Assembly (NCBI RefSeq): GCF_003334405.1
Contig: NZ_QOWM01000014.1
Source: Escherichia coli
Lineage (GTDB): Bacteria; Pseudomonadota; Gammaproteobacteria; Enterobacterales; Enterobacteriaceae
Length of the DNA: 64,000 nucleotides
Reading direction: 5' to 3' (one strand)
Positions 50,195 to 50,859 of this stretch are shown here, in pieces. A model generated the notes under the pieces. That model saw only the letters and a program-made list of their open reading frames with translations, was not told the DNA's origin and did no database searches. Numbering within the stretch: the stretch's first letter is position 1; each line of letters starts with the position of its first letter. A program made the translations under genes and the position numbers.

Positions 50195-50410
50195 AGGTGT
50201 ATTGCTCAATCTTCGAACGGGGGGAGGATTGTAGCAGAATCGCATTTGAATGTGACCGCGTGTAAGCCGCTAACCGGTTGGCTGCGGATGTTTAAATCAG
50301 AGAGAGAAGACCGAAATCGGAGTTCATCGTGAATCCATTAGACTTAGAAAATATCGGGTCGTAACGTTGTGTTATTACTTTTTCAGAGTTTACTAAGGAG
50401 AGGTTTACTC

Positions 50411-50859
50411 GTGGCGATTAATTTCAGCCCTAAGGTTGGTGAAATACTGGAATGCAACTTTGGTAACTATCCTGTTAGCCAAAATGGACCGTTCAGCACG
50501 ACGTATTACGATGGCCGCATTCCTCCTGAAATGATAAAAAACAGGTTAGTTGTCGTGCTCAACGGAAAAATTAATGGCAACGCATGCATCGTCGTTCCAT
50601 TATCAACCACTCGCGACCAGACAAGTTAAAACGTGGAATGCATGTTGAAATAGCCAGTAATGTTATCAATGACCTGCAATTCTTTGATCAGCAGATTCGT
50701 TGGGCCAAAGCCGACCTGGTACAACAAGTCAGTCGAAACAGATTAAACAGAGCAAGGACTTACAGAGGGTATCTTAATCAATGTTTGCCACATGAGTTGG
50801 TTGCAGACATACAGAGGGCGGTCATCAAGTCAATCAATGCCATATCGCTCATAAATTGA
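50411..50859 (+). pseudogene. yifN: frameshifted MazF/PemK-family toxin gene remnant
   Basis: Two overlapping ORFs in different frames (50369..50629 and 50584..50859) together resemble one MazF/PemK-type protein: GEILECNFG...RLVVVLNG...NACIVVPLSTT in frame A, then PDKLKRGMHVEIASNVINDLQFFDQQIRWAKADL in frame B. A likely GTG start at 50411 follows an AGGAG-like RBS. I recall yifN being annotated as a PemK-family pseudogene at this position. Confidence 0.65.

Follow-up and report, generated by a model that had tools for sequence, protein, structure and literature searches.

Among described toxins, those of the MazF/PemK family (PF02452) are the closest relatives of the protein considered here. 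To our knowledge, all characterized members of PF02452 are growth-inhibiting RNases. MazF proteins form dimers in solved structures, and their catalytic residues are R29 and T52 in Escherichia coli and R25 and T48 in Bacillus subtilis. The fold of ToxN, the toxin of a type III system, is distantly similar to that of Kid and MazF. A considerable part of all toxin-family genes are solo homologs, which have been an open puzzle; many of them were counted by Makarova et al. (2009; PMC2701414), who raised, without naming cases, the idea of small RNAs as their antitoxins. Here, we analyzed yifN, a frameshifted MazF/PemK-type gene located between rep and ppiC in a 64,000-nucleotide (nt) stretch of E. 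coli DNA (contig NZ_QOWM01000014.1 of assembly GCF_003334405.1), referred to below as the window. A first-pass annotation of the window had described this gene as an orphan without a partner. That description was only partly right: just outside the interval it covered, at 50891-50964, lies a conserved gene for a small RNA (sRNA). The 2 genes are best read as a conserved, horizontally mobile cassette, in which the missing partner of a whole MazF clade appears to be an sRNA.

The yifN-associated small RNA

The sRNA gene occupies a stretch of about 75 nt that ends in a G+C-rich hairpin and a run of U residues, and its promoter has a -35 hexamer that overlaps the yifN stop codon (Table 1). No recognizable strong promoter was found for yifN itself. 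In K-12, the sRNA gene is intact and expressed: an RNA of 79 nt, ecr3777(d+), was reported from the ppiC-yifN spacer on the same strand by RNA-seq, with confirmation by Northern blotting (PMC4681348), and likewise by Conway et al. 2014. By our own arithmetic, ecr3777(d+) maps to approximately 50890-50969 of the window. The sRNA is absent from the annotation of NC_000913.3. The E. coli copy gave no match in Rfam 15 at E ≤ 1, and the intergenic regions likewise matched no Rfam family.

We built a covariance model of the sRNA, comprising 80 positions and 17 base pairs. Of 38 genome loci with yifN from Gamma- and Betaproteobacteria, 36 had a match to it adjacent to the gene, the copy in Haemophilus being matched only with filters off. 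The 2 loci without a match contained a truncated yifN fragment and a homolog of only 32% identity, respectively. The model also recovered the sRNA from pCAR1 and from an E. coli IncX1/IncF plasmid, as well as from 3 of 4 IMG/VR loci. In Superficieibacter, Serratia, Xenorhabdus, and Pseudomonas, the promoter and sRNA follow yifN in otherwise unrelated surroundings. A scan of metagenomes with a pattern built from the sRNA only returned 28 stretches. In 27 of them, yifN lies immediately upstream in the same orientation; the remaining one (L063:43-2410) also has yifN, but an IS21 element (istA/istB) separates its 3′ end from the sRNA, the only such separation found. Within E. coli, genomes without yifN were also without the sRNA, with counts of 4019 genomes for yifN and 4016 for the sRNA.

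The arrangement of the 2 genes varies. They are convergent in Shewanella, while in Massilia and Herbaspirillum sp. Sphag64 the sRNA gene lies upstream of yifN and is divergent from it, the latter strain carrying 2 whole sRNA genes. A sigma-70-like promoter matching at least 8 of 12 consensus positions preceded all 36 sRNA instances, its -10 element ending 4-8 nt (mostly 6-7) before the 5′ end of the RNA. Given this conserved promoter of its own and its free orientation, the sRNA gene therefore constitutes an independent transcription unit, of which the product, rather than the position, matters. Divergence of the protein and of the sRNA 5′ domain went together (rho 0.59, calculated over pairs that are not independent). 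Between E. coli and Superficieibacter, the sRNA shows 3 differences, whereas synonymous sites in yifN are saturated.

Covariation was tested on a model-fitted alignment of the 36 sRNA instances, with 500 shuffles. Standard pairs filled 96.7% of the pair cells, 12 of the 17 pairs showed compensatory changes, and none of the shuffles did as well; when the partner columns were slid, pairing fell to 31-65%. In the resulting structure, 2 short hairpins, H1 and H2, are separated by a U-rich linker and followed by the terminator stem. Both are imperfect copies of a unit GCC-CWUWGA-GGC(C). A long-range helix joining the 2 GGCC-containing units, which the E. coli RNA adopts in its minimum-free-energy fold, was discarded because its pairs were broken more often than those of the two-hairpin model and showed hardly any compensatory changes, in a comparison that is imperfect in that the alignment had been fitted to the two hairpins.

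Some sRNA copies depart from this layout. Three hairpin units can be seen by eye in Roseateles chitinivorans and Rubrivivax (L043:3037-3143 and L046:3037-3142), and the divergent copy of Haemophilus paracuniculus (L055:2992-3070) has 2 hairpins of the form CGG-CUUAGA-CCG. In Shewanella surugensis (L041:719-824, minus strand), the sRNA region resembled rnk_pseudo (RF01772), with 36.9 bits against a gathering threshold of 55. This resemblance covers promoter DNA in part and is not found in other copies, and it was treated as chance or terminator-like. The 3′ half of the rnk_pseudo consensus (UUGAGGGCUCGGAAAACCCC...GGGGUUUUGC) resembles the part of the sRNA from H2 to the terminator.

yifN and its protein product

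The rep-ppiC stretch of the window (rep on the minus strand, with its start near 50194-50245; ppiC at 51058-51339) is 100% identical to that of K-12 strains such as DH10B. Its plus strand contains 2 overlapping open reading frames (ORFs) in different frames, one running from 50369 (or from the annotated GTG at 50411) to 50629 and the other from 50584 to 50859. The first-pass annotation had read them as a single MazF/PemK-like gene, yifN, and RefSeq annotation as well as a Pfam match of the repaired protein bear this out. In NC_000913.3, the identical 449 nt bear the label "pseudogene yifN b3777," and records of the Prokaryotic Genome Annotation Pipeline (PGAP) list a "frameshifted" type II PemK/MazF family toxin. 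The pseudogene state is known already and is unremarkable by itself.

The frame switch had been attributed to a 1-bp indel, correctly so. Relative to the intact alleles of O157:H7 (L002:1712-2161, WP_000996692) and of a B2-like strain (L003:3213-3662, WP_000996698), the window lacks the bracketed T in GACCA[T]GACAAG, which is the sole indel with respect to both. As a result, the 5′ frame ends at a TAA (50627-50629) 3 codons past the site, leaving an N-terminal product of 72 amino acids (aa). Intact yifN comprises 450 nt and encodes 149 aa. Since the repaired product of the window and K-12 is only 1-2 residues off the intact alleles, the lesion must be recent; judging from these alleles, yifN was inactivated recently in the K-12/B lineage by the loss of one T.

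As for the start of the gene, an ORF does begin mechanically at the position first proposed, 50369, but the conserved and annotated start is the GTG at 50411. Initiation at the in-frame upstream GTG at 50369 would add 14 residues (MLLLFQSLLRRGLL; 50369-50410). This extension is not conserved, and in Superficieibacter it is closed by a stop codon. Ribo-RET signals for yifN have been reported at the annotated start and at an in-frame upstream start (bioRxiv 10.1101/520783). That no cognate protein antitoxin is encoded between rep and yifN was confirmed: the only plus-strand ORF of at least 25 aa in this interval is a 28-aa ORF with a TTG start, not a plausible antitoxin, and the interval is not conserved in the syntenic Superficieibacter locus.

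The repaired 149-aa protein matched the Pfam model PemK_toxin (PF02452; E 2.4e-10, 41 bits) with residues 38-141, covering positions 15-108 of 109 in the model, and a precomputed PF02452 match is present in every full-length YifN homolog. Scans of both half-ORFs and the repaired protein against NCBIfam and PADLOC gave zero matches, which implies that the PGAP name rests on Pfam-level similarity. A sequence search of the PDB with YifN returned only a chance-level match (DarA, E 0.17). An AlphaFold2 model built with 43 homologs (predicted local distance difference test score 73.9, predicted template modeling score 0.68) suggests an SH3-like barrel with a C-terminal helix. The best 50 matches of this model in a Foldseek search of the PDB were all MazF-family toxins (E 1e-5 to 8e-4; target template modeling score 0.63-0.81), including MazF-mt1 of Mycobacterium tuberculosis, MoxT of Bacillus anthracis, and the MazF proteins of Staphylococcus aureus and B. 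subtilis.

Across the alignment of the 43 homologs, R45 and S65 are invariant, as are W98, R111, and Q135. By hhalign, R45 falls on R29 and S65 on T52 of E. coli MazF, and S65 falls on T48 of B. subtilis MazF, with YifN KNRLVVVL paired to MazF GHRPAVVL and VPLS to VPCT; these are equivalences by alignment only, with weak E-values. The codons for both predicted catalytic residues sit upstream of the frameshift. YifN is approximately 40 residues longer than MazF; the loop that joins strands 1 and 2 is predicted, with low confidence, to contain an insertion of about 20 residues. A HMMER scan of 1.84 billion cluster representatives showed the clade to be small, with 31 clusters (50% identity) at E ≤ 1e-30 and 141 at E ≤ 1e-10. 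By profile, predicted fold, and catalytic-site residues, YifN is a member of the MazF/PemK family (PF02452), and as such it would be expected to be a toxic RNase.

To look for a protein partner, all ORFs of at least 35 aa within 700 bp of yifN were compared all-versus-all in 33 loci from more than 20 genera. Apart from the shared order of rep and ppiC and a spurious antisense ORF opposite the sRNA, no protein family was found to be common across genera beside yifN. The antisense ORF (47 aa; 50849-50992, minus strand) occurred in only 3 of the 33 loci and was rejected as a by-product of RNA conservation. Alignment across genomes recovered intact single-ORF alleles, which are the majority in E. 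coli, and no conserved protein antitoxin was present beside any of those examined. Judging from these gene neighborhoods, the YifN family as a whole is without a conserved protein partner. In Herbaspirillum sp. Sphag64 (L052:1479-3145) and Massilia (L050:1633-3142), an HTH_36/DnaD_N-like gene encoding 176-191 aa lies just before yifN or slightly overlaps it. In both loci, the sRNA gene is upstream on the opposite strand, and they may represent a three-component variant.

Homologs of YifN of about 150 aa occur in Enterobacterales, Pseudomonas, Xanthomonas, Legionellaceae, Shewanella, Haemophilus, Roseateles, Rubrivivax, Herbaspirillum, and Massilia. Plasmid records with the gene numbered 119, of which 59 were conjugative; pCAR1 and E. 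coli IncX1/IncF plasmids were among them. Flanking genes vary by taxon, and some loci are islands with an integrase, RadC, or insertion sequence (IS) elements. Carriage by phages is marginal, with 4 IMG/VR loci and 2 weak matches in GenBank phages. On pCAR1 (L091, NC_004444.1 83541-88987) and related Pseudomonas elements, the cassette lies within a long run of small hypothetical genes on the same strand, followed by genes for an N-6 DNA methylase and a GNAT protein, and in Xanthomonas it adjoins RadC and an integrase (loci other than pCAR1, L005-L008). Neighborhoods of these kinds resemble accessory or leading regions of conjugative elements.

We surveyed 5426 complete E. coli genomes, all of which contained rep and ppiC. 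The yifN segment was present in approximately 4019 of them, while approximately 1440 had only an 86-bp spacer between rep and ppiC (e.g., the B2-type strain LP5-1, L015:795-882). The exact K-12 deletion allele was found in 1228 genomes, derivatives of MG1655 and BL21 among them, and approximately 2697 genomes (about 69% of yifN carriers) had the intact length at the deletion site. The rep-yifN-ppiC order is also found in Superficieibacter electus (L016/L020). For intact yifN, the ratio of nonsynonymous to synonymous substitution rates (dN/dS) was approximately 0.06, both within E. coli and in comparison with S. electus (dS approximately 1.8). By this measure, intact alleles are under strong purifying selection. 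Together with the deletion, IS, and frameshift alleles, this indicates that intact yifN is functional and that the gene has been lost repeatedly.

A few further observations concern individual E. coli genomes. IS1 is inserted in or beside the yifN segment in some of them (genome matches H1, H13, and H41; e.g., NZ_CP178650.1 4747178-4748815), and in match H41 yifN itself is split by IS1. In laboratory-evolved K-12, an insertion of IS2 at yifN position 359/360 has been described (PMC4340650), so that the locus has been a target of insertion sequences more than once. In E. coli UTAK-14 (L090:4897-9954; NZ_CP168998.1 5401896-5406953), the genes rhlB, gppA, rep, and yifN would be expected between trxA and ppiC, but the roughly 5 kb found there contain few ORFs and no annotated feature, which is probably due to a low-quality or rearranged assembly.

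Table 1. Features of the yifN locus in the window, with the basis of each assignment
Feature	Position	Strand	Basis or detail
Approximate extent of the yifN-sRNA cassette as a presence/absence polymorphism	50240..51005		approximately 1440 of 5426 genomes without the segment
Shine-Dalgarno AAGGAG (50395-50400) and GTG start codon (50411-50413)	50395..50413	+	sequence; aligned starts of 25 homologs
yifN pseudogene (b3777), predicted MazF/PemK-fold endoribonuclease gene	50411..50859	+	RefSeq (same span), Pfam, AlphaFold2/Foldseek
Predicted catalytic codons Arg45 (50543-50545; MazF R29) and Ser65 (50603-50605; MazF T52)	50543..50605	+	arithmetic from start 50411
Frameshift site, one T deleted (His70 codon CAT)	between 50619..50620	+	alignment with 2 intact alleles
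Sigma-70 promoter of the sRNA: -35 TTGACA (50856-50861), 17-nt spacer, -10 GATAAT (50879-50884)	50856..50884	+	11 of 12 consensus positions
YifN-associated sRNA, approximately 74-80 nt	50891..50964	+	sole covariance-model match in the window, 74.2 bits, E 1e-17
Hairpin H1, loop CAUAGA	50894-50896 with 50903-50905	+	100% paired; 2 of 3 pairs covary, including GCC/GGC to GGC/GCC and CCC/GGG
Hairpin H2, loop CUUGA	50917-50920 with 50926-50929	+	88% paired; 3 of 4 pairs covary
Terminator stem, loop UUU, then U run	50935-50944 with 50948-50957	+	99% paired; 7 of 10 pairs covary

A possible antitoxin role and its alternatives

We lean slightly towards the reading that the cassette encodes a toxin and its RNA antitoxin, the abundant sRNA acting on YifN by direct binding in a type III-like manner, and that K-12 has kept the RNA of a dead toxin. 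The sRNA, produced in abundance from its own near-consensus sigma-70 promoter, would neutralize YifN by binding the protein, with one hairpin for each active site of a YifN dimer, which is assumed here by analogy with MazF. On plasmids, genomic islands, and some chromosomes, the pair would serve as a module for addiction or for stress/defense. Repeated covarying hairpins, a strong promoter belonging to the sRNA, free orientation, conserved catalytic-type residues, and a patchy distribution over plasmids and islands are all features that fit an RNA directed at a protein.

A more far-reaching version, which we rate somewhat short of even and put forward tentatively, is that a MazF-family (PF02452) endoribonuclease neutralized by a separately transcribed, structured sRNA, with 2-3 hairpins occupying the active sites of the dimer, would constitute an undescribed class of toxin-antitoxin system bridging types II and III. 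Such a class would be carried by conjugative plasmids (pCAR1, IncX/IncF), islands, and about three-quarters of E. coli chromosomes, and a role in plasmid addiction or abortive-infection defense against phages may follow.

Several points weigh against an antitoxin role. The toxicity and RNase activity of YifN, and its binding and inhibition by the sRNA, are predictions. The sRNA is unlike known type III antitoxins, in that there is no tandem-repeat array upstream of the toxin gene. It has remained unchanged in the 1228 genomes in which yifN is dead, which may point to a separate function of the RNA, though the frameshift is recent. The stems of H1 and H2 are just 3-4 bp long, and the alignment used to assess their covariation had been fitted to that very structure. 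In the sub-branch of Massilia and Herbaspirillum sp. Sphag64, the HTH_36/DnaD_N gene upstream of yifN could be a protein regulator or antitoxin. Lastly, the test for antisense pairing described below, RNAduplex with shuffles, is crude, and a short seed interaction could escape it.

If YifN were not toxic, it could be a partner dedicated to processing or binding the sRNA (as an RNase or chaperone), and the two would make up a small ribonucleoprotein in which YifN matures, stabilizes, or turns over the RNA. The sRNA would then act in trans, with plasmid or host genes as examples of targets. In favor of this, the linkage of gene and RNA is tight in both directions, and the U-rich linker and U-tailed terminator of the sRNA are like those of trans-acting sRNAs. 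Many E. coli strains carry intact yifN without evident harm, and the persistence of an unchanged RNA without YifN in the 1228 genomes, including those of K-12 and B, is compatible with this explanation and with an antitoxin alike. Against it, the equivalents of the catalytic Arg and Ser/Thr of MazF are invariant, and toxin-antitoxin modules typically show the same patchy spread over plasmids and islands and the same frequent inactivation, here through frameshift, deletion, IS1, or IS2. We judge a nontoxic YifN, the main alternative, to be unlikely, if deserving of serious attention.

An antitoxin RNA could also pair with the yifN mRNA, blocking its translation or triggering its decay in a type I-like manner, as in RalR/RalA and SymE/SymR. 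The RNA gene does adjoin a toxin-like gene, its CU-rich linker (UUUUCUCCCC) could pair with the Shine-Dalgarno region of E. coli yifN (AAGGAGAGG), and the GCCCA at the 5′ end of the sRNA is complementary to the codons UGGGC of the invariant Trp98-Ala99. When the sRNA 5′ domain was compared with the yifN mRNA of the same taxon by RNAduplex in 25 taxa, however, no common site was found: the best duplexes lay at different mRNA positions among taxa, with z-scores around 0 (mostly -1.2 to +1.7). Shine-Dalgarno regions vary widely by taxon while the linker stays U/C-rich, and a flip from GCC to GGC in hairpin H1 (L047, L049) is compensated inside the hairpin and not in the mRNA. Pairing with the mRNA therefore strikes us as quite improbable. 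Mimicry of the sarcin-ricin loop of 23S rRNA or of a Shine-Dalgarno sequence by GAGG motifs was also considered and was dropped on account of loop sequences that are inconsistent across taxa.

The first-pass annotation had seen in yifN a type II module of the mazEF/pemIK kind that lost its protein antitoxin and was frameshifted afterwards. A frameshifted gene, the lack of an upstream ORF, and the PGAP name "type II toxin-antitoxin system PemK/MazF family toxin" would all agree with such a history, and the toxin-like gene is indeed broken. The loss of an antitoxin is what fails: the family is without a conserved protein partner throughout (0 of 33 loci) and has a conserved RNA partner instead, and most yifN alleles in E. 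coli are intact without an antitoxin gene beside them, with purifying selection acting on them (dN/dS approximately 0.06). We give a decayed type II module very little credence. Since the putative toxin decayed and its probable RNA partner survived in K-12, the order of events would be the opposite of the one first proposed.

The sRNA could in principle be an unrelated neighbor of yifN, such as a ppiC leader, a fragment of the yifN 3′ untranslated region or terminator, or an independent sRNA, given its place in the yifN-ppiC spacer of E. coli, where its 3′ hairpin is the sole terminator after yifN. This is scarcely tenable, and co-occurrence effectively refutes it: the sRNA follows yifN amid wholly different flanks and on plasmids, is missing wherever an E. 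coli genome has ppiC and lacks yifN, has its own conserved promoter, and was accompanied by yifN on all 28 metagenome matches. The probability that the two-frame gene is functional through programmed ribosomal frameshifting is negligible, despite the Ribo-RET initiation reported at yifN in K-12 and BL21 (bioRxiv 10.1101/520783) and the deletion allele shared by BL21-derived genomes, as yifN is a single ORF in most E. coli and all other genera, no slippery motif is present at GACCAGACAAG, and a stop lies 3 codons past the site.

Comparison with known toxin-antitoxin systems

If the sRNA is an antitoxin, MazF-family toxins would not be restricted to protein antitoxins, and the boundary between type II and type III would blur. 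Searches limited to proteins would in that case systematically mislabel such modules as orphans. The cassette also places an unnamed sRNA of K-12, validated by Northern blotting and missing from the reference annotation and Rfam, in a context linked to function. A natural set of strains is at hand, K-12 being toxin-null and RNA-positive, O157:H7 and many commensals being toxin-positive, and B2 strains without the cassette existing as well; because these differ in cassette state, an antitoxin role is directly testable in existing strains. We found no paper or Rfam entry that links YifN-type genes to this RNA, in a literature search whose coverage was incomplete, so that this absence is not proof of novelty.

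YifN resembles MazF, PemK (Kid), and ChpBK in its PF02452 match, its predicted fold, and its equivalents of R29 and T52, and it has an HVE(I) strand in common with B. subtilis MazF. It differs from them in being longer, in forming a small clade of its own, and in being linked to an sRNA gene, with no gene for a MazE/PemI-type antitoxin. The adjacent, co-oriented protein antitoxin gene that defines type II systems is accordingly missing from yifN loci.

With the type III systems ToxIN, CptIN, and TenpIN, the cassette would share its proposed working principle, and its predicted endoribonuclease gene stands beside a gene for a noncoding RNA, here one with similar hairpin units. These units vary in number (2 or 3), the whole RNA can be duplicated, evidence of antisense pairing is lacking, and the cassette is borne by plasmids, islands, and chromosomes. 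However, YifN is a true PF02452 protein rather than a relative of ToxN/AbiQ, CptN, or TenpN, and PADLOC gave no match. The sRNA is a single RNA of approximately 75 nt with two 12-14-nt hairpins, whereas type III RNAs are tandem arrays of 34-45-nt repeats. It is encoded downstream of the toxin-like gene or elsewhere and has its own promoter, whereas the type III RNA lies upstream, with a terminator before the toxin gene.

The type I systems RalR/RalA and SymE/SymR share with the cassette a protein toxin of ordinary size and a small RNA from the same locus. Their RNAs are complementary to the toxin mRNA, while no conserved complementarity was found for the yifN-associated sRNA, whose gene is not antisense to yifN, although it is convergent with it in Shewanella. 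Finally, yifN is similar to solo toxins, such as the solo MazF of Myxococcus, as a toxin-family gene without a neighboring antitoxin gene, and it differs from them in that the YifN clade as a whole has a specific, conserved, and structured RNA partner.

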